Of a stretch of 53,546 nucleotides of DNA, positions 18,979 to 37,134 are shown piece after piece. Below the pieces are notes generated by a model. That model had not been told where the DNA came from, did no database searches, and worked only from the letters and a program-made list of their open reading frames with translations. The stretch spans positions 1 through 53,546 of the forward strand of contig JAKLGA010000009.1 of assembly GCA_022710975.1 (NCBI GenBank). The letters are read 5' to 3'. The position numbers were made by a program, and so were the translations under genes. Each line of letters begins with the position of its first letter. The first letter of the stretch is position 1. The stretch is from Myxococcota bacterium. GTDB taxonomy: Bacteria; Myxococcota; B64-G9.

Positions 18979-21254
18979 AGCCGCCGCAGCCAGGCCAGGC
19001 CCACGAACAGCAGCAGGGCAGGGGAGCAGCCGCCCGCGGAGGCGCAGCCCCCGCAACCGGAGCCGTGGAGCGAGGCCGTCCCGTGGTCGTCTTGGACCCC
19101 GGAGTCCGGCCCGTCGGGATCCCCGGCGCCGTCCGATCCGTCGGATCCGTCCGATCCGTCGGATCCGTCCGACCCGTCGGCGCCGTCCGTCCCACCGTCC
19201 GATCCGTCCTGCGCCACCTCCCCCAGCGGCACCTCCACCGGGACCTCCGCCCGCCAGTCGATGCCCGAGGCCGCCAGGTAGGGCGGGTCGCTCGCCACGG
19301 GCGCGGCGGACACCAGCACCACGCTGCGGAAGGGCGCGAGCGGGACGCTCCCGCCCACGGGCGTGCCATCGGGCAGCGTCCAGACGCCGGCCAGGACCGG
19401 GACCTCGGCCTGCGCCTCCGTGTCGTTGAACACCAGGAAGGCGTTGGCGCGCACGATCAGGCTCCCGTCGGCGCGGGCCCAGGGCGCGGCCTGGGTCCAG
19501 GCCGCCAGCGTGTCGAGGTCTGCCCCTCCCTCCGGGCGGATCACCCCGGCGCCCTCGGCCGAGGCGATCAGGGTGGTCGCGGTCATCAGGCCGTAGTCGA
19601 GGTCGGGCTGGTACTGCAGGGCCACGGGCGTGGGCGGGGTGTAGGGCGGCAGCCACCACTGGTTCAGGTTCTCGGGCCGCACCAGCCGGCGGCTCGGCGA
19701 GAGCGCGGCCAGGGTGTTGCCCTCGATGGTGTGGCCCTGGGAGTCGCCCGCGTCGCCCGACAGCCCCAGCCCGGCCACGCGGTCGTCCACCGCGTGGTTG
19801 CCGCGCACGCTGCAGGTGAAGTTGTTGGGCAGGAAGATGCCCTGGCCGTTGCTGCCGTAGATGCTGTTGTCCTCGATCACCGAGTCGTGGAAGTCCTCGA
19901 GGAACTCGGGCCAGATGCCGTTCCCCAGCGGCCACCAGGGGTGCGAGGTCTCGAGGTCGCCGAGCGTGTCCAGGATGATGTTCTCGCGGATGATCGAGGC
20001 GTTGCAGTTGGTGTACACGGCCGCCCCGTCGTTCAACGTGCCCATGGTGCGCACGAACACGTTGCGCTCGACCGTCTGGCCGTCGCTGCCCAGGATGATG
20101 CCCGCGTAGCCCGTGTCCACCACCCGGTTCAGGCGGAAGGTGGCCGCGTTCGTCTGGCCCAGGATGACGCCCGCCGCGTGCCAGGAGCCGCTGCCCCCGT
20201 AGCCGCGCTCGTGGCCGATGCGCAGGAAGAGGTTGCGCTCGATGAGAGAGCCGGCCGGCCCGGCGGCGTCGGCCCAGCCCTGGATGGCGACGTTGCGCAC
20301 GTCGCGGAAGATCGAGCGCCGGATGGTGAAGGGCTGGCTGCTCCAGCCGTAGCCCACGGCGTTCGTCTCGATCTCGGCGAAAGTGCAGGCCTCGACCGTG
20401 GCCGGACCGTCGAGCTGCAGGGCCGGACCGGCGTAGCGCTGGAGCTGCAGGTGGCTGAGGCTCGTGCCGCGGGTGGTGAGCCCCGGCTCGTCGCGGGTGA
20501 GCACCTCGACCCGCATGCCCGCGGGGTCGGCCCAGGCGGGCGGGTAGAGGTACAGCGTGCCCGCCTCCCAGAACCACTCGCCGGGGGCGTCCAGCTCGTC
20601 GAGGTCGCCGTCGAGGAAGTAGCCCGAGCCCGGGTCGCTGAAGGGGTCCTGGAAGCGGCCCTCCGGGCCCAGCTCGAGGGTGTCCACCGCGGAGTGGCTG
20701 GTGACGGGCCGCGTCTCCCACCACCAGCTCCAGCGGCGCCAGCGCACCTGGGCTCCGGTCCAGCGGCCGGCCGCCACGCCCGGGCGCGCGCTCAGCTCGG
20801 CGTCCACGATGCGGTCCGGATCGTCGTCGTTGTCCACCCGCAGGAAGCCCTGGTTCGGCCAGCGCGCGAGCGGCACGAAGCGGCCGTCCACGTAGCAGGC
20901 CAGCACCGGCCCGGCCACCGCGGCCGTGCGCACGCGCTCGTCCGCGGCCCAGACGCCGGTGAGCGCCACCGGCTCGCTCGCGGTCAGCAGCGGATCGGCG
21001 CCCTGCCCGTAGGCGTCCAGCGCCAGGCCGCTGCCGAGGTCCAGGCCGCTGGCCGGGTAGGTCCCGCCGCGCTGGAGCAGGATGCGATCGCCCGCGCCCG
21101 CGCGGGTGAGGGCGTGGGCCAGGGAGGCGAGCGGCGCGGCCTCGCTCCCCGCGGCCCCGTCCACGCCGCCCGGGGCCACGTGCCAGTCGGCGGCGGTCGC
21201 GGCGGCGGGCAGGCACACGAGCCACGCGGCCATGCGGGTGATCGCGGTCCTCAT
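18966..21254 (-). CDS. Right-handed parallel beta-helix repeat surface protein with MYXO-CTERM-type sorting tail
   Basis: Signal peptide MRTAITRMAAWLVCLPAAATAA; many NxxxxN/GxxxxN turns typical of pectate-lyase fold (IIRENIILD, VIEDNSIYG, SVRGNHAVD); C-terminus (DGS)n linker then GSGCGGCASAGGCSPALLLFVGLAWLRRLYSV (Cys motif + TM + basic) = MYXO-CTERM pattern. Confidence 0.8.
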   Translation of the reverse strand: MRTAITRMAAWLVCLPAAATAADWHVAPGGVDGAAGSEAAPLASLAHALTRAGAGDRILLQRGGTYPASGLDLGSGLALDAYGQGADPLLTASEPVALTGVWAADERVRTAAVAGPVLACYVDGRFVPLARWPNQGFLRVDNDDDPDRIVDAELSARPGVAAGRWTGAQVRWRRWSWWWETRPVTSHSAVDTLELGPEGRFQDPFSDPGSGYFLDGDLDELDAPGEWFWEAGTLYLYPPAWADPAGMRVEVLTRDEPGLTTRGTSLSHLQLQRYAGPALQLDGPATVEACTFAEIETNAVGYGWSSQPFTIRRSIFRDVRNVAIQGWADAAGPAGSLIERNLFLRIGHERGYGGSGSWHAAGVILGQTNAATFRLNRVVDTGYAGIILGSDGQTVERNVFVRTMGTLNDGAAVYTNCNASIIRENIILDTLGDLETSHPWWPLGNGIWPEFLEDFHDSVIEDNSIYGSNGQGIFLPNNFTCSVRGNHAVDDRVAGLGLSGDAGDSQGHTIEGNTLAALSPSRRLVRPENLNQWWLPPYTPPTPVALQYQPDLDYGLMTATTLIASAEGAGVIRPEGGADLDTLAAWTQAAPWARADGSLIVRANAFLVFNDTEAQAEVPVLAGVWTLPDGTPVGGSVPLAPFRSVVLVSAAPVASDPPYLAASGIDWRAEVPVEVPLGEVAQDGSDGGTDGADGSDGSDGSDGSDGSDGAGDPDGPDSGVQDDHGTASLHGSGCGGCASAGGCSPALLLFVGLAWLRRLYSV
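19124..19210. repeat. Short tandem GATCCGTCN/GACGGATCN microsatellite-like repeat encoding (DGS)n linker
   Basis: gtccgatccgtcggatccgtccgatccgtcggatccgtccgacccgtcgg... inside beta-helix gene C-terminal linker. Confidence 0.7.
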
Positions 21255-21658
21255 GTCCCCAGCTTCTTCTGCACCCCGCGGGCGATCTCCTCGACGGTCA
21301 GGAGCTGGGCCAGGTGGCGGCGGGTGAGGCCGGGCTTCAGGAAGTCGCGGGCGTGGGGAAAGTGCTCCCGGAGCGCGACCAGGGCCCGCTCGGTGAGCAC
21401 CTCGTCCTTGTGGATCTCCTCCTCGGGGATGCCGAGCTGGGCCGAGAGGCTCATGTCCTCGCGGGAGAGCCGCAGGCCGAACTCCTGCTCCAGGAGGTAC
21501 ATCAGCTCGACCAGATCCAGGCTCTCGGCTCCGAGATCGTCCATCAGCCGGCTCTCGGGCCTGACCTCGGCGACCTGCAGGGCCAGCACCTCGGCCACGC
21601 GCTTGCGCACGCGCTCGAGGGTGTCGGTGGGGATGGGGACGGGCGTGGGGACGGGCAT
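21251..21658 (-). CDS. Acyl-carrier-protein-like protein with C-terminal extension
   Basis: Phosphopantetheine-attachment-like motif LGAESLDLVELMYLLEQEFG; 135 aa (ACP core ~80 aa + ~50 aa tail); stop overlaps start of beta-helix gene (ATGA at 21251-21254). Confidence 0.6.
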   Translation of the reverse strand: MPVPTPVPIPTDTLERVRKRVAEVLALQVAEVRPESRLMDDLGAESLDLVELMYLLEQEFGLRLSREDMSLSAQLGIPEEEIHKDEVLTERALVALREHFPHARDFLKPGLTRRHLAQLLTVEEIARGVQKKLGT

Positions 21659-23637: not shown

Positions 23638-24390
23638 TCACATCCCACCGGCGAAGCCACCGTCCGCGTCCAGCACCGCGCCGTGCACGTAGGCGGCCTC
23701 GTCCGAGGCCAGCCAGCACACCAGGGCCGCGATCTCGTCGGCGCTGGCGAAGCGCCGGAGCGGCACGCGCGCGCGCAGCTCCTCGCCCGCCAGCGCCCGC
23801 AGCGGCGCGGTCATGCCCGTCTCCACGATGCCCGGGGCCACCGCGTTCACCCGGATGCCCTTACGGCCCACCTCGACCGCCAGGGCGCGGGTGAAGGCCT
23901 CGGCGAAGCCCTTCGTGCCGGCGTACACCGCCCCGCCCCGGCTGGGCTTCCTGGCGAGCGTCGAGCTCAGGTTGACGATGCAGCCCGCGCGCGCCTTGAG
24001 CATGGGCTCGAGGGCCGCCCGGGCGAGCCACACCTGGCCCAGCACGTTGGTCTCCACCACCCGGCGGATCTCCTCGTCTGGCTGGGAGAGCAGCAGGTTC
24101 TCGGCCGCCACCCCGGCGTTGTTCACCAGCGTGTCCAGCCGCCCGTAGGCCTCGAGTGCCCGCGCCACCAGGAGCCCGGCCGTGGCCGGATCGGCCACGT
24201 CGCCGCGCACCACCTCGCAGGCGGCCCCGTCCGCGCGGCAGCCCTCGGCCACCTGCCGCATGGCCCCCTCGTCCGCGCGGTGGTTGAGCACCAGGCGCGC
24301 GCCCGCCCGGGCGAAGCGGCGCGCCACGGCCGCCCCGATGCCGCGCGAGGCCCCGCTCACCAGGATCACCCGTCCGCCCGTCATCACCAT
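23638..24390 (-). CDS. SDR-family oxidoreductase (FabG-like 3-oxoacyl-ACP reductase type)
   Basis: GASRGIG Rossmann motif, NNAG, catalytic YAGTK (YxxxK), PG motif; ~250 aa. Confidence 0.85.
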   Translation of the reverse strand: MVMTGGRVILVSGASRGIGAAVARRFARAGARLVLNHRADEGAMRQVAEGCRADGAACEVVRGDVADPATAGLLVARALEAYGRLDTLVNNAGVAAENLLLSQPDEEIRRVVETNVLGQVWLARAALEPMLKARAGCIVNLSSTLARKPSRGGAVYAGTKGFAEAFTRALAVEVGRKGIRVNAVAPGIVETGMTAPLRALAGEELRARVPLRRFASADEIAALVCWLASDEAAYVHGAVLDADGGFAGGM

Positions 24391-24515
24391 GCCCTGCCGC
24401 CTCCCGGGGAGTGTGTCCTCCTTGTACCCGCACCTGCAGGCGCCAGGCAAGCGCTGGCCCCGCGACCGGGGGCGTGGCATGCTGCCGCAGGGGGGTGAGC
24501 CATGGGAGGTGGTCC

Positions 24516-24887
24516 GTGCGGAGCACGTGGAGCGCCTGCGTGGGGCTGGTGATCCTCCTGCTGGCCGGCTGCGAGCGGCCGCCAGCCGAGCCGGCGCCGG
24601 CCGATGCCCAGGCCGTGGCCGCGCAGCGCGAACGCGAGGTGCGCCAGTGGTGGAAGGCTTGCCGGGCCGGCGGGCAGACGGACTGCGCCCGGCTCGAGGC
24701 GCTGCTCGCCAGCGACTCGGGTTTCAAGGCGCGCGTGGGCACCGACGCGGGGATCCTCGCCCAGGTGTGCCGGCTCGGGGATCCGGATCGCTGCCTGGAC
24801 CTCGGGCTCAAGCTCTTCTTCGGGGTGGGCGTGCCGCGGGATCCGGCCGCGGCCGACGCGGCCATGGCCAAGGCCCGGCTGGAGTGA
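24516..24887 (+). CDS. Possible small lipoprotein with Sel1-like repeat (GTG start)
   Basis: (V)RSTWSACVGLVILLLAGC lipobox-like leader; C-terminal LGLKLFFGVGVPRDPAAADAAMAKA resembles Sel1/TPR-like motif; on opposite strand inside the minus-strand lipid gene string, so weak. Confidence 0.3.
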   Translation: MRSTWSACVGLVILLLAGCERPPAEPAPADAQAVAAQREREVRQWWKACRAGGQTDCARLEALLASDSGFKARVGTDAGILAQVCRLGDPDRCLDLGLKLFFGVGVPRDPAAADAAMAKARLE

Positions 24888-24968
24888 GGCGGCTCACGCG
24901 GGCCGCGCGCCCCGCCCGCCAGGCGCCGGTCCAGGCGCACGCGGGGCCGGGCACGCACGGCAGCCGTC

Positions 24969-26267
24969 TCAGGCCGGGCTCCGGCTCACCACCAGGGCGG
25001 CGTTCTGGCCGCCGAAGCCGAACGAGTTGGACAGGCAGGTGCGCACCCGGGCCGAGCGCGGCGCGAGCGGCACGTGGCACAGGGCGCACTCGGGATCCGG
25101 ATCGGTCAGGTTCAGGGTGGCGGGCAGGAGCTGCGCCTCCAGGGCCCACAGCACGGCCACCAGCTCGACCGCGCCGGCCGCGCCGATCAGGTGGCCGAGC
25201 TGGCTCTTGGTCGAGGACACCGGCACCCGCGGGGCGGCCTGCCCCAGCACCTGGCGGATGGCGGCCGCCTCGGACGGATCGTTCTTGCGGGTGCCCGTGC
25301 CGTGGGCGTTGATGTAGTCGAGCTCGCCGGGCGCGATCCCGGCGCGCTCCAGCGCCAGCCGCATGGCGCGGGCGGCCTGGGCCTGGTCCGGGGCCGGGTC
25401 GGACACGCGGAAGGCGTCCAGCGTCGAGGCGTAGCCCCGCAGCTCGGCCAGGATGGGCGCCCCGCGGCGCCGGGCGGCCTCGCGCTCCTCCAGCACCAGC
25501 GCGGCCGCGCCCTCGCCCAGCACGAACCCGTCCCGGGCGCGGTCGAAGGGCCGCGAGGCGGCCGGGCCGAGCTCGTTCGAGCGCGACAGCGCCTCCAGCA
25601 TGCAGAAGCCGCCCACGCCCAGCGGGTTGACCATCGAGTCGTAGCCGCCGGTCAGCGCGCAGTCCAGGAGCCCGTCCTGCACGGCCAGGAAGGCCTCGCC
25701 GATGGCCTGGCTGCCGGCGGCGCAGGCCGACAGGTTGACCGCGAACAGGCCCTGGCCGCCCAGCTCCGCGGCCAGGCAGCGGGCGCCGAGATCGGCCGGG
25801 ATCTGCACCAGCGAGCGCTCGCGCTGGGCGCGCACGGCCTCGGCCAGGAGGGCGTAGTCGAGCCGCCCGGCGCGCACCTGCTCGGCCAGGTCCCCCAGGT
25901 TGAAGATCTCCAGGCCGGCGGCCAGGACCAGGCCCACCCGCCGCGGGGCGTGGTGCGCGCTCGCCCGGCTGCCGGGGAACGCCTGCGCCAGGGCCTCGCG
26001 TCCGGCCAGCAGCCCGAAGAGCGATTTGGGATCCCGGAGCAGCGCCGCGCGCTGGTCCGCCGGCAGGTCGAGCTCCGCGCGCGGCAGCGGCGGGACCTGG
26101 CCGGCGATGCGCGTCGGGAAGGTGGCCGCGTCGAAGCTGCGGATGGGCCCGATCCCGGAGCGCCCCTCGCGCAGGCCGGCGAAGAACTCCTGCCTGCCCA
26201 CGCCGATGGGCGAGACCACCCCGCAGCCGGTGACGACCACCCGGCGGCGCGCGCTCGACGAACTCAC
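24969..26267 (-). CDS. Beta-ketoacyl-ACP synthase (KAS II / FabF-like)
   Basis: GTG start with GGAGGTG RBS; RRVVVTGCGVVSPIG, active-site Cys in NLSACAAGSQAIG, His motifs INAHGTGT and GHLIGAAG; 432 aa. Confidence 0.9.
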   Translation of the reverse strand: MSSSSARRRVVVTGCGVVSPIGVGRQEFFAGLREGRSGIGPIRSFDAATFPTRIAGQVPPLPRAELDLPADQRAALLRDPKSLFGLLAGREALAQAFPGSRASAHHAPRRVGLVLAAGLEIFNLGDLAEQVRAGRLDYALLAEAVRAQRERSLVQIPADLGARCLAAELGGQGLFAVNLSACAAGSQAIGEAFLAVQDGLLDCALTGGYDSMVNPLGVGGFCMLEALSRSNELGPAASRPFDRARDGFVLGEGAAALVLEEREAARRRGAPILAELRGYASTLDAFRVSDPAPDQAQAARAMRLALERAGIAPGELDYINAHGTGTRKNDPSEAAAIRQVLGQAAPRVPVSSTKSQLGHLIGAAGAVELVAVLWALEAQLLPATLNLTDPDPECALCHVPLAPRSARVRTCLSNSFGFGGQNAALVVSRSPA

Positions 26268-27475
26268 GCGCCCACCTCCGGGGCGGCCAGCAGGGCCGCG
26301 GACAGGCCCCCGTCCGGGCCGACGGCCGTGACCAGCACCCGGTCGGGGGTAGGCGGCGAGGGGGGGCCGGCCTGCGGACCGTCGCCGGGCAGGGGCGCAC
26401 CCGCGGCCAGGCACAGGCTGGCCACGGCCAGGGCGGCGGGGAAGGCGGCCGGCTCGGAGAAGCCCAGCAGCCCGTCCAGGCTCAGGAGTGCGGGCGGCCG
26501 GGCGGGCCACAGCCGCGCGCACAGCGACACCAGGGCCGCGTCCCCGGCCGCGTCCGGGCTGCCCGTCACCAGCAGGACCGGGGGCGGCGGTCCCCCGCTC
26601 GCGTCCCGCAGGACCTCCGCGAGCAGGTCCGTCGCGCCCGCCGCCTGCCGGGGGCCCCAGGCGACGCTGACGCGCTCGAGCGCGGCCAGGGGGCGCGCCC
26701 CGCGCGCCCGGGCGGCCGGCTCCTGCTCGAGCACCAGCGCCGCGCCCTGATCGGCCGGGGCCAGGCCGCGGTGGCCGGGCGCGAAGGGCCGGGCGGCCTC
26801 GGCCGTGGTGGGCACCTGGTCCGCCCGCAGCGCGGTGCACAGGGGCAGCAGCGACAGCGCCTGGCCGCTGCCGCCGACCAGGGCGCAGCCGGCGCGGCCA
26901 CGGCGGAGGCCGCGCAGGGCGGCCTCCAGCGCGGCGCCGGCCTGGCCGGCGCCCGGGTACAGGATGGCGTTCTCGCCCCGCAGGCCGAGGGCGATGCTGG
27001 CGAGCCCGAGCGGCATGTTGAGCAGCATCTTGAAGGGCATGAGCGGGTTGCAGCGGCGGATGCCCTCGGCGCCCATGTAGGCGTAGTCCGGCCGTCCGTC
27101 CGCCGTCAGGCCCGCGGCCATGGTCGGGTAGACCGCGGCGAGGTCGAAGGCGATCAGCCCGGTGGCCAGGTAGAGCGAGGTGTCCTCGGGCGGGGAGGAG
27201 AGCGCCGCGGCGGCCAGCGCCCGCGCGCAGACCACCACGGCCAGCTCGGCGGTGGGGCTCATGTACTTCTGCAGCTTGCGATCCGCCAGGAACCCGGACG
27301 TGGGCGGGGGCGGGCAGGGGGCCCCGGGCAGCGCGGGGAAGCCCGGCGCCCCGGCCAGCTCGAAGGCGCGGAGCGCGCGCCGGCCCGCCTGCAGCGCCGC
27401 GAGGCTCTCGGGCCCGTCGCCGAAGGCGGTGTGCAACCCGGCGCCGGTGACGAGGGTGCGCCCAGGTGCGCTCAC
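26264..27475 (-). CDS. Beta-ketoacyl synthase-like protein lacking the Cys-His-His triad (chain-length-factor / KS-beta-like)
   Basis: KS-fold length and N-terminus (RTLVTGAGLHTAFG) but active-site positions read ATGLIA / GGSGQ instead of xACxxG / HGTGT; stop overlaps KAS start (4 nt) and start overlaps dehydratase stop. Confidence 0.7.
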   Translation of the reverse strand: MSAPGRTLVTGAGLHTAFGDGPESLAALQAGRRALRAFELAGAPGFPALPGAPCPPPPTSGFLADRKLQKYMSPTAELAVVVCARALAAAALSSPPEDTSLYLATGLIAFDLAAVYPTMAAGLTADGRPDYAYMGAEGIRRCNPLMPFKMLLNMPLGLASIALGLRGENAILYPGAGQAGAALEAALRGLRRGRAGCALVGGSGQALSLLPLCTALRADQVPTTAEAARPFAPGHRGLAPADQGAALVLEQEPAARARGARPLAALERVSVAWGPRQAAGATDLLAEVLRDASGGPPPPVLLVTGSPDAAGDAALVSLCARLWPARPPALLSLDGLLGFSEPAAFPAALAVASLCLAAGAPLPGDGPQAGPPSPPTPDRVLVTAVGPDGGLSAALLAAPEVGA

Positions 27476-27984
27476 TCGATGAACCTCGCCTCGCGGGTGA
27501 GGATCTCCAGGTAGCCCTCGCGGGCCTCCTGCAGGCGCTTGTCCTCGATCTTGAGGAACACGTACAGGATCTCGGCCTGGGCCACCCGGCGCTCGCCGCG
27601 CCTGGTGAGCACCTTGACCAGGGCCGAGTCCTCGTGGGCCGAGACGATCTCCGCCCGCAGGCGTAGCAGGTCGCCTGGCTTCACGAAGTCGCGGAACTTG
27701 GCCTTGACCGAGCTCAGCACGCAGCGCGGGCTGTAGCCGAGCTCGCCCTTCAGCGACAGCTCGAGCAGCGCCCCGCCGAGCTGGGCCATGCTCTCGATGA
27801 GCAGCGCGCCGGGGTAGACCGGTTGACCGGGGAAGTGGTGCTCGAAGCAGTCCTCGCTCAGCGCCACGGCCTTGAGGCCCTCGGCGTACTCCCCCCGCTT
27901 GACCTCCTCGATGCGATCGAGCAGCACGTAGCGCACGTCGTCACCCTCCCTCGCGCGGGCCGTCTTCCCCGTCGTCCCCGGCAT
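27472..27984 (-). CDS. FabZ/FabA-like 3-hydroxyacyl-ACP dehydratase (hotdog fold)
   Basis: EHHFPGQPVYPGALLIESMAQ motif (FabZ HxxxG..P..PG.L..E); ~165 aa; start may be ATG 27984 or GTG 27933 (track start overlaps nitroreductase 3' end by 44 nt). Confidence 0.8.
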   Translation of the reverse strand: MPGTTGKTARAREGDDVRYVLLDRIEEVKRGEYAEGLKAVALSEDCFEHHFPGQPVYPGALLIESMAQLGGALLELSLKGELGYSPRCVLSSVKAKFRDFVKPGDLLRLRAEIVSAHEDSALVKVLTRRGERRVAQAEILYVFLKIEDKRLQEAREGYLEILTREARFIE

Positions 27985-28621
27985 CCAGGACGCGCAGCAG
28001 CCGCTCGGCGGCCCGGCGCGGGGGCGCCGCGGGCGCCTCGGCCGGGTAGCCCACGGGCACCAGCGCGGCCACCTCCCAGCTGTCTTGAAGACCGAGCAGA
28101 CGGCCGAGCGCCGGCGCGGCCACCAGCGGGCCGGTCATCCAGCAGGCCCCCAGCCCGAGCGCGTGGGCGGCCAGGAGCAGGTTCTCGACGGCGGCCGCCA
28201 CCGAGGCCAGCGAGTCCTCGGCCTGGCGGCCGGCCGGGCTGCCCGCGGGCCGGGCCCGGCGCTGTTGGCTGGCGGCCAGGAGATCGGGCCCCGGGCGGTG
28301 GGCGAAGGCCAGCACCAGCGGGGCCTGGTCGAAGAAGCAGAAGGCGTCCAGGTAGCGGTTGGCGTCCTCCGCGGCCTCGGGCCGGAGCCCGGCCCGGAAG
28401 GGGGCCAGCGCCTCGTCCACCGCGGCCCGCAGGGCGGCCCGCCGCCCGGGCGCGCTCACCGCGAGGAGCCGCCAGGCCTGGCGGTTTCCGGCCGAGGGCG
28501 CCCAGCGCGCCGCCTCGGCCAGCTTCGAGACCAGCTCCGCCGGCACCGGCTCGGGCCGGAAGCGCCGGATCGAGCGCCGCCCGCGCAGGAGCTCGAGCAG
28601 CCGGGCGTAGCTCTCGGACAT
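27941..28621 (-). CDS. Nitroreductase-family flavoprotein
   Basis: RRSIRRFRPEPVPAELVSKLAEAARWAPSAGNRQAWRLL is the nitroreductase N-terminal signature; 226 aa; first gene of the minus-strand arm, GGGGAGG RBS. Confidence 0.8.
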   Translation of the reverse strand: MSESYARLLELLRGRRSIRRFRPEPVPAELVSKLAEAARWAPSAGNRQAWRLLAVSAPGRRAALRAAVDEALAPFRAGLRPEAAEDANRYLDAFCFFDQAPLVLAFAHRPGPDLLAASQQRRARPAGSPAGRQAEDSLASVAAAVENLLLAAHALGLGACWMTGPLVAAPALGRLLGLQDSWEVAALVPVGYPAEAPAAPPRRAAERLLRVLDAGDDGEDGPREGG

Positions 28622-28695: not shown

Positions 28696-29445
28696 GTGGC
28701 CGAAGACGGAACGCTCCGGGGCATGCGGGTGCTGGTGACCGGCGGGACGGGCTCCATCGGCCGGGCCATGTGCCGGGCCTTCGCCCGGGAGGGGGCGGAT
28801 CTCGCCTTCACCTGGAACCGGCGCGAGGCGGAGGCCGGGGCGCTGGCGGCCGAGCTCCAGGGCCGGGGCGTGCGCGCGCTGCACGGCCGGGTGGGCGCCA
28901 CCGACGGGCCGGCCATCCAGGCCTTCTGCGAGCGGGTGGAGACGGAGCTCGGCGCGCTGGACGCGCTGGTGAACAACCTCGGCGGCACCCAGGTGCTGCC
29001 CTTCGCGCTGATCGACGAGCCCGACTGGGACGAGACCCTGGCGCTCAACCTCAAGTCGATGTTCCTGTTCTCCAAGGCGGTGGTGCGGGGCATGATCCGC
29101 CGCAAGGCGGGGGTGATCCTCAACCTGGGCTCCCTGGCCGGCCGGCGCATGCTGGAGGTGCCGGTGCACTACGCCACCGCCAAGGCCGGGGTGACCGGGT
29201 TCACCATCTCGCTGGCCAAGGAGCTGGCCCGCTACGGCATCCGCGTGCTGGAGCTGACGCCGGGGCTCATCCAGGGCGGCATCGGCGACAACGTCAGCGA
29301 GCGCCAGCTCGCCGAGTACAACCGCTACTGCGCCCTCGGCCGACCGGGCACGGCCGAGGAGGTGGCCGAGCTGGCCGCCTTCCTGATCTCCCCGCGCGCC
29401 GGCTACATGAACGCGGTCAGCGTCCAGCTCGACGGGGGGCTGTGA
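28696..29445 (+). CDS. SDR-family 3-oxoacyl-ACP reductase-like (FabG-like)
   Basis: GTG start after GGAGGAG RBS; TGGTGSIGRAM, NNLG, YATAKAG (YxxxK); 249 aa; first gene of plus-strand arm, divergent from nitroreductase. Confidence 0.85.
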   Translation: MAEDGTLRGMRVLVTGGTGSIGRAMCRAFAREGADLAFTWNRREAEAGALAAELQGRGVRALHGRVGATDGPAIQAFCERVETELGALDALVNNLGGTQVLPFALIDEPDWDETLALNLKSMFLFSKAVVRGMIRRKAGVILNLGSLAGRRMLEVPVHYATAKAGVTGFTISLAKELARYGIRVLELTPGLIQGGIGDNVSERQLAEYNRYCALGRPGTAEEVAELAAFLISPRAGYMNAVSVQLDGGL

Positions 29446-29448: not shown

Positions 29449-30915
29449 ATGCCCGTGGCGCCCGGTGAGCTGCCCATCTACCTGGGCCTGTCCCAGGGCC
29501 TGTGCCGCGAGTGCCGGCGCGTGGTGCCGGCCCGCTACCTGGCCGACGCGCAGGGGGTGTGGCTGGAGCGGCTGTGCCCCGAGCACGGCCCGGCCCGGGC
29601 CCGGGTGGCCGAGAGCCTGGCCTGGTTCCAGGACGCGCTGCGGGCCCCCATGGCCCCGCGCCCGCCGGCGCAGGCCCGGCCGCGCAGCGCCGGCTGCCCG
29701 GAGAGCTGCGGGCCGTGCAGCTTCCACGCCCAGGCCTGCCACCTGCCGGTCTTCTCCATCACCAACGCCTGCGATCTGCGCTGCCCGATCTGCTTCACCT
29801 ACAACCGCGCCGACCGCCTGTACTTCATGCCGCCCGAGGAGTTCCAGCGCCAGATCGAGTTCGTGGTCCGGGCCACCGGCGGGACGCACCTGGTCAACGT
29901 GACCGGCGGCGAGCCGTTCATGCATCCGCGGCTCTTCGAGCTCCTGGCGCTCGCGCGGCGGCCCGAGATCGGACGCGTCACGGTGAACACCAACGGGCTG
30001 GCCATCGCCGCCGACCCGTCTCTGGCCCGGCGCCTGGCCGGGGTGGGCGCCTACGCCATCCTGTCGCTCGACACGCTCGACCGGGAGCGCAGCCTGCGGC
30101 TGCACGGGCGGGACATCGTGGACGAGAAGCGCCGCGCGCTCGACGCGCTCGAGGCGGCGGGCGTGCCCACGACGCTGCTGATGGTGCTGGCCGGCGGGAT
30201 CAACGAGGCCGACCTGGCCCCCGTCCTCGAGCTGGCCATGCGCCGCGAGCACGTGCGCTCCTTGACCATCCAGTGCATGACCTACACCGGCCAGGGCGGC
30301 GGCGCCTTCCTGCCGCGCCGGCACCTGCCGGTGGAGAGCGTCGAGCGCATGCTGGCCGAGGCCAGCGGCGGTTGGCTGCGCCCGGGCGACTTCATGCCGC
30401 TGCCCTCGGCCCACCCGCTGTGCTACGGGGTGAGCTACCTGGTGTGCGAGCCCCGGGCCGGGCTGCACCCCTTCGCCCGGCTGCTCAGCCGCGAGGTGCT
30501 GGCGCGTAGCCTGGTGGGAGGGTACCTGCTCGAGCCGACCGCGGAGCTCGAGACCTCGCTGCGGGACGCCATCGACCGGCTGTGGTCCGAGGGGGCCGAG
30601 CCCGGCCTCTTGCGGGCGCTGAAGAGCATGCTGACCACCATCTACCCGACCGGGCAGTCGCTGGGCGTGGCCGAGCGCCAGCGCCGGGCCGAGTCCACGG
30701 TCAAGACGCTGTACGTGCACGCGCACATGGACGAGGACACCTGGGAGGTGGGCCGGGCCATGCGCTGTCCGGACCAGGTGCCGGTGGACGCCGAGCGGCT
30801 GATCGGCGCCTGCAACTACAACCTGTTCTACCGCATGCGGGATGAGCGCTTCTGGGTGGAGCCCGGCTGCGCCGGCCGCGAGGCCGGGGGTTGCGGGCAG
30901 GAGCCAGCGCCATGA
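29449..30915 (+). CDS. Radical SAM enzyme with N-terminal rubredoxin-like Cys3His module and second Cys cluster, paralog 1
   Basis: N-term CRECRR...WLERLCPEHG (CxxC / CPxHG knuckles), then GCPESCGPCSFHAQAC, then rSAM core CDLRCPICF (CxxxCxxC) and GGEPF; C-terminal RAMRC...ACNYN; 488 aa. Confidence 0.85.
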   Translation: MPVAPGELPIYLGLSQGLCRECRRVVPARYLADAQGVWLERLCPEHGPARARVAESLAWFQDALRAPMAPRPPAQARPRSAGCPESCGPCSFHAQACHLPVFSITNACDLRCPICFTYNRADRLYFMPPEEFQRQIEFVVRATGGTHLVNVTGGEPFMHPRLFELLALARRPEIGRVTVNTNGLAIAADPSLARRLAGVGAYAILSLDTLDRERSLRLHGRDIVDEKRRALDALEAAGVPTTLLMVLAGGINEADLAPVLELAMRREHVRSLTIQCMTYTGQGGGAFLPRRHLPVESVERMLAEASGGWLRPGDFMPLPSAHPLCYGVSYLVCEPRAGLHPFARLLSREVLARSLVGGYLLEPTAELETSLRDAIDRLWSEGAEPGLLRALKSMLTTIYPTGQSLGVAERQRRAESTVKTLYVHAHMDEDTWEVGRAMRCPDQVPVDAERLIGACNYNLFYRMRDERFWVEPGCAGREAGGCGQEPAP

Positions 30916-32327
30916 GCGCCCGGCCGCTCCCCCCGCCGGTGGAGACCTTCGCCGCCACCCGGGCGCTGTGCAACCTGTGCGGCCGGTTGACCGACGCGCG
31001 CATCGCCTTCCAGGGCGAGGAGGTCTGGCTGGAGAAGCACTGCCTGGAGCACGGCCCGAGCCGCACGCTCGTCTCCACCGACCGGGCTGGCTACCTGCTG
31101 TCGCTCGGCTTCGTGAAGCCCGGCCAGGATCCGCGCGCGCGAGCCGTACGGGACTACCGGGGCTGCCCGGGCTCGTGCGGGCTGTGCCCGGCCCACCAGC
31201 AGCACACCTGCGTGCCCATCCTCGAGCTCACCGGGCGCTGCGACCTCGACTGCCCCGTGTGTCTGGTGCACGGCCAGGCCCAGCCCGAGCTCGGCCTGGA
31301 GGACGTGCGCCGGGTGGTGGCGGCGCTGCTCGGCTACGAGGGGCGGCTGCACATGCTGAACCTCTCGGGCGGCGAGCCCACCGCCCACCCCCGCTTCCTG
31401 GAGATCGTCGAGGAGCTCGCGGCCCGGCCGGAGATCGGCGTGCTCAGCGTGTCCACCAACGGCCTGCGGCTGGGCGAGGACGAGCGCCTGGCCCGGCGGC
31501 TGGCGGAGCTCAAGGTGGTGGTCTCGCTGCAGGTGGACGGGCTGGCCGGGGAGGGCGACCTCGCGCTGCGCGGGCGGCCGGGGCTGGCCGCGCTGAAGCG
31601 CCGGGCGCTGGAGCGGGTGCTCGCGGCCGGAGGGCGGCTGTCCCTGGTCTACACCCTGGAGCGCGGAGTGAACGAGGCCGGGCTCGCCGAGGTGCTCGCG
31701 CTGCTCTTCTCGAACGACGCCATCCTGAGCCTGATGGTCCAGCCCCTGGCCCACGCCCGGCGCGCCCCGGCGGGCGATCTGCGCGAGGTGCGCGCTGGCC
31801 TGACCACCCCCGAGGTGGTGGGGCTGCTGGTGGCCGCCTCCGGCGGGGTGCTCGAGCCGCGGGACCTCACCCCGCTGCCCTGCTCGCACCCGGCCTGTTT
31901 CTCCCTCACCTACCTGCTGCGCGCCCGGGGCGGCAAGCTGGTGTCGCTGCCCAGGCTGGTGGACGCGGACACCTACCTGGACGCCATCAAGAACCAGGCC
32001 CTGCTGCGCACCGACCCCGAGGGGCTGCAGGCCGTCAAGGACGCGCTCTACAAGCTGTGGTCGTCGAGCGGGGTGATACCGGACCGGGAGGACGTGCTGG
32101 CGACGGTCAAGCAGCTCCTGCTCGATCTCCAGCGGGTGGATCCGCGCGGCCCGCTGCGGGACGGCCTGGAGCTCGGGCTGACGAACGTGAAGTCGATCTT
32201 CATCCACAGCTTCATGGACCGCTACACCTTCGACCTGTCGCGGGCCATGAAGTGCTGCAACCACTACCCGCAGGCTGATGGCCGGATGCTGCCGGCCTGC
32301 ATGCGCAACGTCGGGCTGGCCCGCTGA
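30912..32327 (+). CDS. Radical SAM enzyme with N-terminal rubredoxin-like Cys3His module, paralog 2
   Basis: CNLCGR...WLEKHCLEHG, GCPGSCGLCPAHQQHTC, rSAM CDLDCPVC, GGEPT, C-terminal RAMKCC...ACMRN; AGGAG RBS 8 nt before ATG 30912, which overlaps paralog-1 stop (ATGA). Confidence 0.85.
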   Translation: MSARPLPPPVETFAATRALCNLCGRLTDARIAFQGEEVWLEKHCLEHGPSRTLVSTDRAGYLLSLGFVKPGQDPRARAVRDYRGCPGSCGLCPAHQQHTCVPILELTGRCDLDCPVCLVHGQAQPELGLEDVRRVVAALLGYEGRLHMLNLSGGEPTAHPRFLEIVEELAARPEIGVLSVSTNGLRLGEDERLARRLAELKVVVSLQVDGLAGEGDLALRGRPGLAALKRRALERVLAAGGRLSLVYTLERGVNEAGLAEVLALLFSNDAILSLMVQPLAHARRAPAGDLREVRAGLTTPEVVGLLVAASGGVLEPRDLTPLPCSHPACFSLTYLLRARGGKLVSLPRLVDADTYLDAIKNQALLRTDPEGLQAVKDALYKLWSSSGVIPDREDVLATVKQLLLDLQRVDPRGPLRDGLELGLTNVKSIFIHSFMDRYTFDLSRAMKCCNHYPQADGRMLPACMRNVGLAR

Positions 32328-32361: not shown

Positions 32362-33414
32362 ATGGACGTCGATCTGTTCGGGCTGGAGATGAGCTGGGCG
32401 GACTTCGCCCAGGCGCTGGGGCTGGGCTTCCTGGCCTGGTTCTTCGTGCGCCACGTGCTGCTCGGGTTCATCGTGGTCGACCAGAACGAGCGCGCGGTGA
32501 AGACGAGCTTCGGGCGGGCCCTGCGCCTGGGGCAGACCACCACGCTGGCGCTGCCCATCGCCGAGGTCCTGAGCCCGGACCAGCGCAAGCGCTACTCGTT
32601 TCCCCAGGTGCGGGTCATGGGCCCGGGCTGGTACTTCAAGTGGCCCTGGCAGCGGGTGCACAAGGTGAGCATCGCCACCCGCACGGTGAACATGGCCTGG
32701 GATCCGGAGACCCCGTCCGCCAACCACAACGGCACCATGCTGGAGGCGGTCACCAAGGACCAGCTCAACACCGGGCTCACGGGCGACATCCGCTGGCGGG
32801 TGAGCGAGCAGAACCTGTACGCCTACCTGTTCGGGGTCAAGCGGCCCATCGCCCACGTCATGGGCTACTTCGTGTCCGTGCTGCGCGAGCGCATCGCCAA
32901 CTTCGAGGCCCCCAAGACCGCGGCCGCCCCGGCCGCCCAGGCGGGTCCGGGCGCGCTGCCTGGCTTGCCCATGGACGCCTCCATGGTGCAGGGGGTGAGC
33001 ATCAACGATCTGCGCAAGAACCTGCGCGACATCAACGACCACATGGACCGCGAGTGCCGCTCGTCCGAGGCGCGCTACGGCATCCTGCTGGACGCCTCGC
33101 TGATCACCGGCATCGATCCGCCGCCCGAGGTGGAGTCGGCCCTGGCGGCCATCAACACCGCCCACAACCAGGTGTCCTCCGACATCAGCCTGGCCCAGGC
33201 CGGGGCCGACCAGAAGATCGTCCAGTCCCGCCGGGCGGTGGAGATCGAGACCATGCGGGCCCAGGCCGAGGTGTCGCCGCTGACCGCCCAGGCCGAGCAG
33301 CTCGCGGCGCTGAAGGCGGCCGGGGGCAAGGAGGCGCTGGCCGCGTACCGGCGCTTCGTGCGCCTGGAGCTCTTCAAGCAAGCCGGCCAGGTGGTGCAGG
33401 AGGTGCGGTCATGA
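32362..33414 (+). CDS. SPFH/band-7 (stomatin/flotillin/HflK-like) membrane protein 1
   Basis: N-terminal TM LGLGFLAWFFVRHVLLGFIVV followed by VDQNERAVKTSFGR (SPFH start motif), long C-terminal coiled-coil-like Ala/Gln-rich region; GGGGGGAGG RBS. Confidence 0.8.
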   Translation: MDVDLFGLEMSWADFAQALGLGFLAWFFVRHVLLGFIVVDQNERAVKTSFGRALRLGQTTTLALPIAEVLSPDQRKRYSFPQVRVMGPGWYFKWPWQRVHKVSIATRTVNMAWDPETPSANHNGTMLEAVTKDQLNTGLTGDIRWRVSEQNLYAYLFGVKRPIAHVMGYFVSVLRERIANFEAPKTAAAPAAQAGPGALPGLPMDASMVQGVSINDLRKNLRDINDHMDRECRSSEARYGILLDASLITGIDPPPEVESALAAINTAHNQVSSDISLAQAGADQKIVQSRRAVEIETMRAQAEVSPLTAQAEQLAALKAAGGKEALAAYRRFVRLELFKQAGQVVQEVRS

Positions 33415-34376
33415 GCGAGAACGGCTGGCTGCTCACCGGGATCGCCTTCGGCGGCTTCTTCCTGGCCGTGCCCATCTTCCTGGGGTTCCTGCGCTTCCTC
33501 GGCTTCTACGCCGTGGTCCAGGAGCGCACCTGCCAGGTGTACGTGCTGTTCGGCAAGGTGGTCACGGTGATCGAGGAGCCCGGGCTCCACTTCCTGTGGC
33601 TCAAGATGGGCCTGAAGGCCCCGGTGGTGCGCTGGATCGGCAAGCTGTACGTGGTGGACATGCGGCTCGACCAGACCTACATGCGCTCCCAGCCGGTCAA
33701 CTCCGAGGAGGGCGCCCCCATGGGCATCGGCATCTGGTACGAGATGTACATCTCGGACCCGCTGGCCTTCCTGTTCAAGAACACCGACCCGCGCGGGTCG
33801 CTCCGGGCCAACGTGTCCAACGCCACGGTGCGCTGCCTGTCGAACATGAAGCTCGGCGAGATGCTCCAGACCCGGCACCTCATGTCCGAGACGGTGCGCA
33901 ACGAGGTCTCGCCCAAGAGCCACGAGTGGGGCTACCGGCTGGGCTCGGTGTACATCCGCAAGGTGCACTTCCGCGACGCGGGCATGATCGCGCAGATCGA
34001 GGAGAAGGTGGTGAACCGCCTGCGCCAGGTCACCTCGGCCATCCGGCAGGAGGGCCAGAACCAGGTCAGCCTCATCTCCAGCGCGGCCGAGCGCGAGGCG
34101 GCCGTGGACTTCGCCAAGGCCGCGGCGCTCCGGCCGGAGATCGTGGGCGCGGCGCTCCGGCGCATCGGCCAGGATGCGGAGGTGAGCGAGGCGCTGTTCG
34201 AGGTGCTGGAGAACCAGGCGCTGGTGGCGAGCGGCGCCCGGCTCACCCTGGTGCCACCCGGCCAGGCGGTGTTGCCGGCGCTCCTGGCGGCCCGCGCCGC
34301 GCCGGCGTCCGGCCCGGCGCCCGCGGGCCGTCCCGTCCCGGCCCCGGGTAGGTTCCCCGTGCCCACCCAGCCGTGA
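33411..34376 (+). CDS. SPFH/band-7 membrane protein 2
   Basis: TM LLTGIAFGGFFLAVPIFLGFL, SPFH motif VVQERTCQVYVLFGKVVTVIEEPGLHF; start overlaps paralog-1 stop (ATGA). Confidence 0.8.
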   Translation: MSENGWLLTGIAFGGFFLAVPIFLGFLRFLGFYAVVQERTCQVYVLFGKVVTVIEEPGLHFLWLKMGLKAPVVRWIGKLYVVDMRLDQTYMRSQPVNSEEGAPMGIGIWYEMYISDPLAFLFKNTDPRGSLRANVSNATVRCLSNMKLGEMLQTRHLMSETVRNEVSPKSHEWGYRLGSVYIRKVHFRDAGMIAQIEEKVVNRLRQVTSAIRQEGQNQVSLISSAAEREAAVDFAKAAALRPEIVGAALRRIGQDAEVSEALFEVLENQALVASGARLTLVPPGQAVLPALLAARAAPASGPAPAGRPVPAPGRFPVPTQP

Positions 34377-34473: not shown

Positions 34474-34932
34474 TTGGCGAGGGCGCACTTGGATTCTGTC
34501 TGCCATATCGAGGGCTTCGAGCCCAGGCTCCTGGGCATCCTGTGCCACTGGTGCTCCTATACCGGCGCGGACCAGGCCGGCGCGGCGAAGCTGCCCTGCC
34601 CGCCGAACCTGCGCATCGCGCGGGTGATGTGCAGCGGGCGGGTCGAGCCCGAGCTCATCCTGCGCGCCTTCCTGCAGGGGGCGGACGGGGTGCTGGTGTG
34701 CGGGTGCCACCCGGGCGACTGCCACTACCTGGGAGGCAACTGCAAGGCCGCCCTGCGCGTCGGCCTGCTGCGACGGGTGCTCGCGCAGCTCGGCATCGCG
34801 CCGGGCCGGCTGCGGCTCGAGTGGGTCAGCGCCAGCGAGGGGGAGCGTTTCTCGCGCGTCGCCCAGGAGGCGGTGGACGCGATGCGCGCGCTCGGCCCGC
34901 TGGGGCTCGGCGGCGGGCAGGTGGCGCCATGA
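34474..34932 (+). CDS. MvhD-like iron-sulfur protein (methyl-viologen-reducing hydrogenase delta subunit family)
   Basis: ILCHWCSYTGADQAG...RVMCSGRVEPELILRAFLQGADGVLVCGCHPGDCHYLGGN is the MvhD/FlpD signature; TTG start, GAGGAG upstream. Confidence 0.75.
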   Translation: MARAHLDSVCHIEGFEPRLLGILCHWCSYTGADQAGAAKLPCPPNLRIARVMCSGRVEPELILRAFLQGADGVLVCGCHPGDCHYLGGNCKAALRVGLLRRVLAQLGIAPGRLRLEWVSASEGERFSRVAQEAVDAMRALGPLGLGGGQVAP

Positions 34933-36912: not shown

Positions 36913-37134
36913 ATGGCCGAGATCAAGATGGACACCAAGGGAATGCGTTGCCCGCAGCCCGTGCTCAAGGTCGCCGCGCGCGCGCCGGAGCTGAAGGCCG
37001 GCGACCTGCTGGAGGTGATCGGCGACTGCCACACCTTCGAGGACGACATCCGCAAGTGGTGCCAGCGCATGGGCAAGACCCTGCTGGCGGTGAACCGGGA
37101 CGGCGCGGTGGTGACCGTGCGCATCCAGTTCTGA
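36913..37134 (+). CDS. TusA-family sulfurtransferase-like protein
   Basis: 73 aa with CPxP motif DTKGMRCPQPVLK at the canonical position. Confidence 0.8.
   Translation: MAEIKMDTKGMRCPQPVLKVAARAPELKAGDLLEVIGDCHTFEDDIRKWCQRMGKTLLAVNRDGAVVTVRIQF

Follow-up and report, generated by a model that had tools for sequence, protein, structure and literature searches.

The contig JAKLGA010000009.1 of a Myxococcota bacterium (NCBI GenBank assembly GCA_022710975.1; GTDB lineage Bacteria; Myxococcota; B64-G9) encodes, between positions 29,449 and 32,327, two adjacent radical S-adenosylmethionine (SAM) proteins that resemble the archaeal tetraether synthase, and this raises the question of what such a pair does in a bacterium. 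By the window we mean the whole stretch of DNA that was analyzed, i.e., positions 1 to 53,546 of this contig (~73% GC), and we refer to the two proteins as rSAM1 and rSAM2. We found that both belong to the Tes/GDGT-MAS superfamily by homology and fold and that they are an ancient, co-retained pair around which a conserved fatty acid synthase (FAS)/polyketide synthase (PKS)-like gene cluster is assembled in diverse bacteria. As developed below, they form two unnamed subfamilies that would act on acyl chains made by that cluster.

Two translationally coupled paralogs with the GDGT-MAS fold

Both open reading frames (ORFs) lie where the initial annotation had placed them:

29449..30915, + strand: rSAM1, 488 amino acids (aa), radical SAM protein of the Tes/GDGT-MAS fold, rSAM1 clade (Pfam, phmmer, Foldseek, orthologs)
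30912..32327, + strand: rSAM2, 471 aa, radical SAM protein of the Tes/GDGT-MAS fold, rSAM2 clade (Pfam, phmmer, BLASTP, Foldseek, public gene calls)

The public annotation is concordant with an analysis of reading frame and third-position GC content (GC3) across the window. In the public gene calls, as in a database protein of 100% identity, rSAM2 starts at the ATG at position 30912 and not at the TTG at 30891 given in the list of ORFs. Only 3 nt separate the stop codon of an upstream short-chain dehydrogenase/reductase (SDR) gene, SDRb, from the ATG of rSAM1. The ATG of rSAM2 (30912-30914) in turn overlaps the TGA of rSAM1 (30913-30915) in an ATGA, with a GGAG 8 nt 5' of the rSAM2 start, and this confirms the translational coupling that had been proposed; the two products may possibly form a heteromeric pair. 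BLASTP aligned them at 34% identity over 454 columns (E = 2e-73), so their paralogy stands, and an earlier estimate by eye of 35 to 40% was slightly high. Orthologs of each paralog from Myxococcota and Acidobacteriota are 57 to 61% identical, and cross-paralog comparisons give 31 to 32%.

Against Pfam, both proteins scored well above the gathering cutoffs for Radical_SAM (PF04055; 88.7 bits for rSAM1 and 60.2 bits for rSAM2, cutoff 29.5) and Zn_ribbon_HMPTM (PF23545; 43.6 and 47.5 bits, cutoff 27). Phmmer recovered GDGT-MAS (7TOL/7TOM) as the sole strong match among solved structures (E = 4e-32 for rSAM1 and 3e-41 for rSAM2, versus 7TOL), and BLASTP aligned the proteins end to end with the 7TOL sequence at 23% (rSAM1) and 26% (rSAM2; E = 2e-48) identity. 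Metal-free AlphaFold2 models (rSAM1, pLDDT 82 and pTM 0.85; rSAM2, pLDDT 75 and pTM 0.81) matched 7TOL/7TOM in Foldseek over 486 to 507 columns, with TM = 0.78 and E = 1e-30 for rSAM1 and TM = 0.72 and E = 1e-28 for rSAM2; other structures aligned over the radical SAM core only, with E values of 2e-9 or worse, ~20 orders of magnitude behind 7TOL. The loops bearing the N-terminal cluster ligands are of low confidence in both models, as expected when they are metal free. Thus, the comparison with Tes by alignment and modeling that the initial annotation had suggested yields full-length homology to GDGT-MAS.

Ligands for four metal sites and their conservation

The crystal structure of GDGT-MAS defines a mononuclear rubredoxin-like iron site (C9x2C12x20C33x2H36), an N-terminal auxiliary [4Fe-4S] cluster (C73/C77/C80 plus a His), the radical SAM cluster (CX3CX2C), and a C-terminal auxiliary [4Fe-4S] cluster with the labile ligand Met439 (PMC9433317). 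The motifs listed in the initial annotation are all present in rSAM1 and rSAM2 and correspond one to one to these crystallographic ligands, so its tentative statement that the archaeal tetraether synthase carries a rubredoxin-like iron in addition to auxiliary clusters was right (PMC9433317). To follow these positions, we aligned 72 rSAM1-type and 67 rSAM2-type orthologs from 80 loci (see below) with the window proteins and the 7TOL sequence; the counts below refer to 73 rSAM1-type and 68 rSAM2-type sequences.

29503..29586, + strand: rSAM1 mononuclear knuckle C19-x2-C22...C43-x2-H46, equivalent to GDGT-MAS C9/C12/C33/H36; three Cys in 73/73
29695..29727, + strand: rSAM1 N-terminal auxiliary [4Fe-4S] ligands C83, C87, C90, and H93, aligned with GDGT-MAS C73/C77/C80/His; 73/73
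29770..29793, + strand: rSAM1 radical SAM cluster C108-x3-C112-x2-C115; 73/73 orthologs
30421..30813, + strand: rSAM1 C-terminal auxiliary cluster region C325, H424, C440, and C455; Cys essentially invariant
30969..31052, + strand: rSAM2 knuckle C20, C23, C44, and H47; Cys in 67 to 68 of 68 orthologs
31164..31262, + strand: rSAM2 N-terminal cluster C85, C89, C92, and H95 and radical SAM cluster C110, C114, and C117; 68/68
31896..32300, + strand: rSAM2 C-terminal cluster region C329, H432, C448-C449, Y452, and C463; all invariant

While the overall identity among orthologs is only 42 to 69%, the ligand columns stay at, or nearly at, 100%, a conservation far beyond chance. The knuckle cysteines, whose loss among orthologs would have spoken against a genuine metal site, are kept, and only the fourth ligand varies, being His or Cys in 69/73 rSAM1-type and 65/68 rSAM2-type proteins. 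In rSAM1 it is Cys in 51, His in 18 (including H46 of the window protein, codon 29584-29586), Gly in 3, and Gln in 1 of the 73; among the 68 rSAM2-type sequences, 63 have His, 3 have Asp, and 2 have Cys at this position. There is consequently a natural series of Cys3His and Cys4 knuckles, with His in rSAM1 of the Myxococcota/Acidobacteriota type, most rSAM2 proteins, and GDGT-MAS and with Cys in most rSAM1 proteins. At the C-terminal site, the motifs RAM(R/K)C and AC(N/M)(Y/R)N correspond to GDGT-MAS C455 and C470, and a further invariant Cys in an HPxC motif, equivalent to C338, completes the ligand set. The GGEP motif of SAM binding is found in both proteins (residues 153 to 156 of rSAM1) and is kept among the 73 rSAM1-type and 68 rSAM2-type sequences. 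Each clade also has invariant residues of its own, namely C97 in rSAM1 and H98, C100, and C324 in rSAM2 (471-aa numbering). As far as ligands can be read from sequence, rSAM1 and rSAM2 each securely keep the four metal-site sets of GDGT-MAS; the proposal of at least three metal sites per polypeptide was right as to multiplicity and short by one in its count.

The residue at the position of Met439 is, however, His in all 73 rSAM1-type and all 68 rSAM2-type proteins (H424 and H432, respectively), versus a Met strictly conserved in 1000 archaeal homologs (PMC9433317). The rSAM1 clade additionally has Pro or Gly for Cys456 and Val for Tyr459 of Tes, both of which are retained by the rSAM2 clade. 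Tyr459 is strictly conserved in archaeal homologs, but Y459F and Y459L variants of GDGT-MAS are still active, and so is the M439A variant (PMC9433317). Because of the latter, His at this position speaks against orthology with Tes and not against its chemistry. Elsewhere in the superfamily, seven representatives (P0153, P0169, P0173, P0189, P0196, P0212, and P0215) have lost the equivalents of C338, C455, and C470 and kept the N-terminal sites; clades of this type seem to be Tes-like proteins in which the cluster bearing the S-C intermediate is missing.

Two subfamilies apart from Tes and TrsS

The curated NCBIfam models place both proteins in the neighborhood of known families without admitting them. 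The Tes model (NF045702; cutoff 450) gave 154.9 bits for rSAM1 and 178.8 bits for rSAM2, with the best-matching stretch at profile positions 2 to 321 of 486; the top-ranked model, TrsS (NF045646; cutoff 490), gave 184.5 and 218.2 bits, with profile positions 2 to 431 of 441 aligned. TrsS has no published function that we could find in the literature, where it appears solely as a listing in PMC13188914. An exhaustive HMMER search over 1.84 billion representatives recovered 250 clusters at E values of <=1e-30, and 110 full-length sequences were arranged in a neighbor-joining distance tree, which is approximate and carries no bootstrap values. Control representatives passed the cutoffs (P0265 with 480.6 bits on the Tes model; P0217 with 567.7 and P0227 with 494.9 bits on the TrsS model), and representatives of seven other clades fell below both. 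In the tree, GDGT-MAS falls in a group bearing Met439, other groups have His, Lys, or another residue there, and rSAM1-type and rSAM2-type proteins each form a His439 clade of their own, apart from the MAS/Tes and TrsS clades. Since the controls from the Met439 group pass the cutoffs and the window proteins fail them, we assign the latter to two unnamed subfamilies of the superfamily. The suggestion that they are bacterial Tes-like enzymes therefore stands for Tes-like homologs and fails for Tes orthologs, given the missed cutoffs, the separate clades, and His at the Met439 position.

A conserved FAS/PKS-like gene cluster around the pair

To place the pair in a wider genomic context, we scanned one genome per GTDB species with the rSAM1 alignment and thereby obtained 80 loci. 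Their hosts span more than 10 phyla and include Myxococcota, Acidobacteriota, Elusimicrobiota, Riflebacteria, Planctomycetota, Verrucomicrobiota, Bacillota, Ignavibacteriales, Nitrospirota, Desulfobacterales, and Muiribacteriota, among others. One example is a metagenome-assembled genome (MAG) of Acidobacteriota, in which genes for a nitroreductase, a FabA/ApeI-like protein, a ketosynthase (KS)-like protein, a KS, an acyl carrier protein (ACP), an SDR, rSAM1, rSAM2, a further radical SAM protein (rSAM), a rhodanese, a hydrolase, and another rSAM are colinear; the proteins are 45 to 63% identical to their counterparts in the window. Mapping by tblastn, which undercounts short or divergent genes such as those for the ACP and the chain length factor (CLF), gave a recurring order of dehydratase (DH), CLF, KS, SDRa, nitroreductase, ACP, SDRb, (second DH), rSAM1, (hexapeptide transferase), (rSAM3, rSAM4), rSAM2, and rhodanese. 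Of the loci flanked by 8 kb or more on each side (n = 38), all 38 have SDRb next to rSAM1, 35 were found to have rSAM2, 34 a dehydratase, 31 the KS, 28 the nitroreductase-fold protein, 26 the ACP and 26 the CLF, 24 rSAM3 and 24 rSAM4, and 23 a rhodanese. Over all 80 loci, the nitroreductase-fold protein was found in 51 and the SDRa ortholog in 33.

The co-retention of the two ancient paralogs, each in its own clade, is pronounced: rSAM2 accompanies rSAM1 in 70/73 informative loci, being adjacent in 33, on the same strand but apart in 33, and on the opposite strand in 4. It is absent from 3 complete loci, and it is missing from 7 truncated ones. As tandem adjacency holds in 33/70 loci, the translational coupling seen in the window is not universal. 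We found no paper on paired Tes-like genes with KS/CLF/ACP genes and none that characterizes this cluster.

Unbiased clustering of ORFs added several accessory genes, namely a second FabZ-like DH (~45 loci), a PEMT-like methyltransferase (12 loci), and a class III aminotransferase (6 loci). In 41 loci (e.g., L042, 11396-11986; L079, 11397-11957), rSAM1 is separated from the following rSAM gene by a gene for a transferase of ~190 aa with hexapeptide repeats (left-handed beta-helix), which has no counterpart in the window; this protein might off-load the product as an acyltransferase dependent on acyl-ACP. As a rule, the rhodanese gene follows directly 3' of rSAM2 (e.g., in loci L018, L021, L025, L042, and L053). 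Its product, of ~420 aa, consists of an N-terminal rhodanese domain and a C-terminal part of ~290 aa without a domain assignment; genes of the rhodanese/cysteine-desulfurase kind also occur at L032, 7324-8814, and L079, 16201-17679. A contig assigned to a "Ca. Kuenenia stuttgartiensis" MAG (L078) and one assigned to a Brocadiaceae MAG (L062) carry DH, KS, SDR, nitroreductase, ACP, SDR, and rSAM1 genes, with or without rSAM2. Long tblastn matches and ORFs at some loci were considered as possible inteins; they contain no internal insertion, and the long ORFs are N-terminal overextensions in high-GC DNA.

The cassette in the window

In the window, the gene content of the cluster is retained, but it is rearranged into two divergent operons and the ACP gene is displaced:

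28696..29445, + strand: SDRb, SDR/FabG-like ketoreductase, first gene of the rSAM operon (Pfam adh_short/KR; public gene call)
27941..28621, - strand: nitroreductase-fold flavoprotein, divergent from the rSAM operon (Pfam PF00881 at 8.5e-38)
27472..27936, - strand: FabZ/FabA-type (ApeI-like) 3-hydroxyacyl-ACP dehydratase (Pfam/NCBIfam, public gene call)
26264..27475, - strand: CLF-like inactive KS paralog (N-terminal KS domain alone detected)
24969..26267, - strand: FabF-like KS with an intact Cys-His-His triad (Pfam/NCBIfam, alignment)
23638..24390, - strand: SDRa, second SDR reductase (Pfam; public gene call)
21251..21658, - strand: long cluster-type ACP, 135 aa, Ser in a DLGAESLD motif (tblastn, 55% identity, E = 5e-39; Pfam PP-binding)
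32362..34376, + strand: two SPFH/Band-7 membrane-scaffold genes, same operon as the rSAM pair (Pfam; public gene calls)
34489-34932, + strand: FlpD/MvhD-like protein (Pfam; public gene calls)
34929-36884, + strand: HdrA-like flavo-FeS oxidoreductase (Pfam; public gene calls)
36913-37134, + strand: TusA sulfur carrier, 73 aa (Pfam; public gene calls)

The CLF-like protein has Ala, Thr, and Phe at the Cys-His-His positions, where its ortholog family has Glu/Ala, Ala/Ser, and Asp/Asn. A KS with the triad and a partner without it make a KS-CLF-type pair, and this is the arrangement predicted for the two proteins. No protein of the cluster passes an equivalog cutoff of NCBIfam; the nitroreductase-fold protein, for instance, is below all of them, with BluB as its best match (88 bits versus a cutoff of 150). 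No enoyl reductase gene was seen among the cluster genes by domain assignment or ORF clustering. The ACP gene was recovered with the ACP of the Acidobacteriota cluster as a tblastn query and lies ~3 kb off the cluster, from which it is separated by an OmpA-family gene and a hypothetical gene. We had also inspected the gap at 24480-24969, the site of the ACP gene in the colinear Acidobacteriota cluster, and it contains just a small plus-strand ORF. That ORF (24516-24887, + strand), on the strand opposite to the SDR and KS genes that flank it, encodes 123 aa, or 158 aa if a GTG farther upstream is taken as the start; it has a lipoprotein-like signal (LLLAGC) and no Pfam match and is a gene in the public record. 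The C-terminal extension of the ACP, of ~60 residues, is conserved in other phyla (median ACP ORF, ~138 aa) and is unusual for an ACP.

Downstream of the pair, the first of the two tandem, overlapping SPFH (flotillin/stomatin-like) genes begins 35 nt past the rSAM2 stop, and the operon runs on through them into the genes for FlpD/MvhD, the HdrA-like protein, and TusA. We considered SPFH, MvhD, and HdrA as conserved partners of the cluster, but they had no match in any of the 80 loci and are thus lineage specific; the FlpD/MvhD-HdrA-TusA trio as such likewise occurs in none of these related loci. The SPFH genes in the operon give a hint, though a lineage-specific one, of a membrane-lipid product. 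One may speculate that TusA and the Hdr-like module substitute locally for a sulfur relay of the rhodanese type or else provide low-potential electrons. Farther along, positions 37154-40166 encode a stressosome-like partner-switching module (two STAS-domain proteins, a SpoIIE/PP2C phosphatase, and two HATPase_c serine-kinase-like proteins). The stretch at 46435-53545 (- strand) encodes a pyridoxal phosphate-dependent decarboxylase, a DUF819 membrane protein, a penicillin-amidase-family protein (851 aa, E = 3e-184), and, at the window edge, a fragment of an AAT-family acyltransferase, all unrelated to the finding.

Proposed chemistry and competing explanations

We favor, with moderate confidence, the explanation that the pair would carry out two Tes-type radical C-H functionalization (bond-forming) steps on an acyl chain built by a dedicated cassette, because Csp3-Csp3 coupling is the only chemistry demonstrated in the superfamily. 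That precedent involves two SAM-dependent H-abstractions and a cluster S-C intermediate (PMC9433317, PMC13459092). By this proposal, rSAM1 and rSAM2 would be the tailoring enzymes of a type II FAS/PKS-like line comprising the KS and its CLF-like partner, one or more FabZ/ApeI-like DHs, two SDRs, the nitroreductase-fold protein, and the long ACP. Each would cleave SAM reductively to the 5'-deoxyadenosyl radical, which would abstract hydrogen at an unactivated sp3 carbon in the acyl chain. The resulting substrate radical could then be held through a C-S bond to the C-terminal [4Fe-4S] cluster, with its three Cys and the invariant His in place of the labile Met439, until a second radical resolves the cluster adduct into a C-C bond by ring closure or chain-chain coupling. 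The two enzymes would perform two different, probably consecutive, bond formations, in keeping with one of the options raised in the initial annotation. C-C coupling or cyclization appears the likeliest outcome, and sulfur insertion is possibly another. The idea of an acyl-chain substrate, also raised there, fits the neighboring KS/CLF/DH/ketoreductase (KR)/ACP genes; the chemistry, the substrate, the order of the steps, and a C-C rather than a C-S outcome are what we infer.

Several observations weigh against this proposal. With the Tes and TrsS cutoffs failed, Met439 changed, and the equivalents of Cys456 and Tyr459 changed in rSAM1, the chemistry of the pair may have diverged from that of Tes. 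The loci were ascertained via similarity to rSAM1, and nearly all of them are MAG contigs. In the 53-kb window, queries with orthologs from five Myxococcota-type loci (E values of <=1) detected neither the two smaller rSAMs nor a rhodanese nor an alpha/beta-hydrolase, although most related loci have these genes. Finally, a rhodanese-domain protein is encoded at 36 loci and a cysteine-desulfurase-rhodanese fusion at 14, giving a union of 49/80, and these genes, together with the TusA gene in the window, fit the consumption of sulfur at least as well as the formation of C-C bonds. Because the rhodanese/desulfurase genes are frequent and positionally tight, the rhodanese gene mostly following rSAM2 directly, retention of sulfur is a serious rival, if on balance an unlikely one. 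The Tes-type adduct between carbon and cluster sulfur would in that case be kept, as in LipA/BioB or RimO/MiaB, to give a thiolated, thioether, or dithiolane-type acyl product, and a rhodanese, a cysteine desulfurase, or TusA (4.6 kb downstream in the window) would resupply the sulfur. It is consistent with this that GDGT-MAS gives off a sulfur-containing lipid at limiting SAM (PMC9433317) and that His invariantly replaces the labile Met439 in both clades. No sulfur-retaining member of the superfamily is known, however, and the sulfur genes could instead serve Fe-S assembly, as each Tes-like protein carries three clusters and most loci encode two additional rSAMs. Roughly 40% of the loci have no such sulfur gene, many of these being truncated, and the window itself has no rhodanese.

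The possibility that the pair are true Tes equivalents, coupling ordinary phospholipid tails into bacterial membrane-spanning lipids of the iso-diabolic acid or branched glycerol dialkyl glycerol tetraether (brGDGT) type, has in its favor the conserved fold and clusters, the two SPFH membrane-scaffold genes in the operon, the presence of Acidobacteriota and Planctomycetota among the host phyla, and the proposal that bacterial Tes homologs are brGDGT synthases (PMC8941075, PMC11868695, PMC11214058). We consider it quite improbable because the membership tests failed, two paralogs are needed here versus one Tes in archaea, and the pair has private ACP and KS genes: scores were far under the Tes cutoff, with matches chiefly to the N-terminal two-thirds of the model, the proteins fall outside the Tes clade (whose control representative passes), Met439 is not conserved, and a private KS/CLF/DH/KR/ACP linkage would be needless for coupling bulk iso-C15 chains. 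Moreover, most Acidobacteria that produce iso-diabolic acid are without Tes homologs (PMC13159169). Still less probable is a ladderane-type or other polycyclization, in which the KS-CLF, DH, and KR proteins would make a polyunsaturated acyl-ACP for the radical SAM enzymes to cyclize. Its logic parallels that of the anammox "Cluster I" (ACP, FabZ, KS plus inactive KS, radical SAM; bioRxiv 10.64898/2026.05.19.726425), and the lack of a visible enoyl reductase gene, the occurrence of the cluster on the Kuenenia and Brocadiaceae MAG contigs, and the "ladderane-like" biosynthetic gene clusters (BGCs) reported from Myxococcota, Verrucomicrobiota, Planctomycetota, and others (PMC9902471), among which this cluster may possibly be counted, would agree with it. 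Yet in place of Tes-like enzymes the anammox cluster has an rSAM that depends on B12 and a homolog of phytoene desaturase, ladderanes are known from anammox bacteria alone whereas this cluster occurs in more than 10 phyla, and the nitroreductase-fold protein could serve as the reductase. The candidate ladderane clusters of Kuenenia (kuste3603-3608, 3335-3352, and 2802-2805; Rattray/Javidpour) were also compared; their published gene lists are without a nitroreductase or a recognizable Tes-like pair, and we claim no equivalence. Almost certainly wrong is the legacy annotation as a 7,8-dihydro-6-hydroxymethylpterin dimethyltransferase of methanopterin biosynthesis, a name given by JGI to many family members and echoed in that of the Pfam domain ("HMPTM zinc ribbon"): the assignment for MJ0619 was not corroborated, the enzyme having been shown to be GDGT-MAS (PMC9433317), and the neighborhood is fatty-acid-like and not pterin related.

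Implications for bacterial Tes homologs

In 2022, 456 bacterial Tes homologs were noted in IMG and hypothesized to make brGDGTs (PMC8941075), and this role is still a hypothesis in later papers (PMC11868695, PMC11214058, PMC13459092). The diabolic acids of Thermotoga are made by Mss and not Tes, and Tes homologs were found in 3/14 Acidobacteria that produce iso-diabolic acid (PMC13159169). In the literature that we found, bacterial Tes homologs are discussed solely as hypothetical brGDGT enzymes, and a KS/CLF context is nowhere mentioned; their presence has already been used in environmental genomics to identify brGDGT producers (PMC8941075, PMC11868695, PMC11214058). Our results show that a large and phylogenetically wide subset of such homologs consists of two distinct, co-inherited clades linked to a KS/CLF/ACP line of their own and, in many cases, to genes for sulfur transfer, and they call for caution in reading rSAM1- or rSAM2-type proteins as tetraether synthases.

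We tentatively suggest, as a possibility somewhat less probable than the two bond-forming steps themselves, that the pair represents a new branch of Tes chemistry that works on purpose-built, ACP-tethered acyl chains and not on finished membrane lipids, yielding an undescribed cross-linked, cyclized, or sulfur-bearing lipid or cofactor in many uncultured bacteria of mostly anoxic habitats. Were this so, a different pathway would be reported by many "bacterial Tes homologs" that now serve to mark brGDGT producers, and possibly also by numerous "ladderane-like" BGC calls of the orphan kind, and the cluster could be the source of an orphan class of sedimentary lipids, with Planctomycetota, Verrucomicrobiota, Myxococcota, Acidobacteriota, Elusimicrobiota, Riflebacteria, Nitrospirota, and Bacillota as candidate hosts. 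The set is compact (8 to 12 genes) and could be expressed to find its product. For mechanistic studies, it also provides naturally varied forms of the GDGT-MAS metallocofactors, i.e., Met439 changed to His, a His/Cys swap in the mononuclear site, and the presence or absence of Cys456 and Tyr459.

Comparison with known systems

GDGT-MAS/Tes (MJ0619; PDB 7TOL/7TOM; NF045702) shares with both proteins the fold and the order of domains, from the rubredoxin-like Cys3His knuckle to the three-Cys C-terminal [4Fe-4S] cluster, and rSAM2 alone of the pair keeps the Cys455-Cys456 pair and Tyr459. It differs in an insertion of ~20 residues ahead of the SHxxC motif, missing in rSAM1 and rSAM2, and in being a single enzyme acting on archaeal ether lipids, whereas rSAM1 and rSAM2 are paired inside an ACP/KS cluster. 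TrsS (NF045646), a radical SAM (seleno)protein of the same superfamily, gives the best curated score for both, but its cutoff-passing representatives form a Met439-bearing clade beside Tes. Mss of Thermotoga is likewise a radical SAM enzyme, with a proposed Csp3-Csp3 coupling of two acyl tails in fatty-acid-based lipids (PMC13159169, PMC13459092); by its description, it is only remotely related to Tes (PMC13159169), it is not found as two paired paralogs, and no link with a dedicated KS/CLF/ACP cassette has been reported for it.

With respect to the cassette, the anammox "Cluster I" (amxACP, amxFabZ, amxFabF2/amxFabFmut, PDH, and B12-rSAM; putatively for ladderanes) is alike in its private ACP, FabZ-type DH, KS with a dead KS as CLF, and tailoring by radical SAM enzymes (bioRxiv 10.64898/2026.05.19.726425). 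It differs in its cobalamin-dependent rSAM and phytoene-desaturase homolog, has no nitroreductase-fold protein, and is confined to anammox bacteria. The highly reducing type II PKSs (e.g., those for aryl polyenes, ApeO/ApeC/ApeI; ishigamide, Iga11/12; and cispentacin, AmcE/F) similarly combine a KS-CLF, an ApeI- or FabZ-like DH, a FabG-like KR, and a discrete ACP with no obvious enoyl reductase, but the window proteins match them below the curated cutoffs, and those systems are without Tes-like radical SAM enzymes. LipA, BioB, and MiaB-RimO have unrelated auxiliary domains, and their alignment with rSAM1 and rSAM2 covers the core only (Foldseek E values of ~1e-5 to 1e-6). They too form S-C bonds to a substrate radical at an auxiliary Fe-S cluster in which one ligand is open or is not Cys, an analogy already drawn for GDGT-MAS (PMC9433317), and the rSAM1/rSAM2 loci share with them the genomic association with sulfur-transfer proteins.

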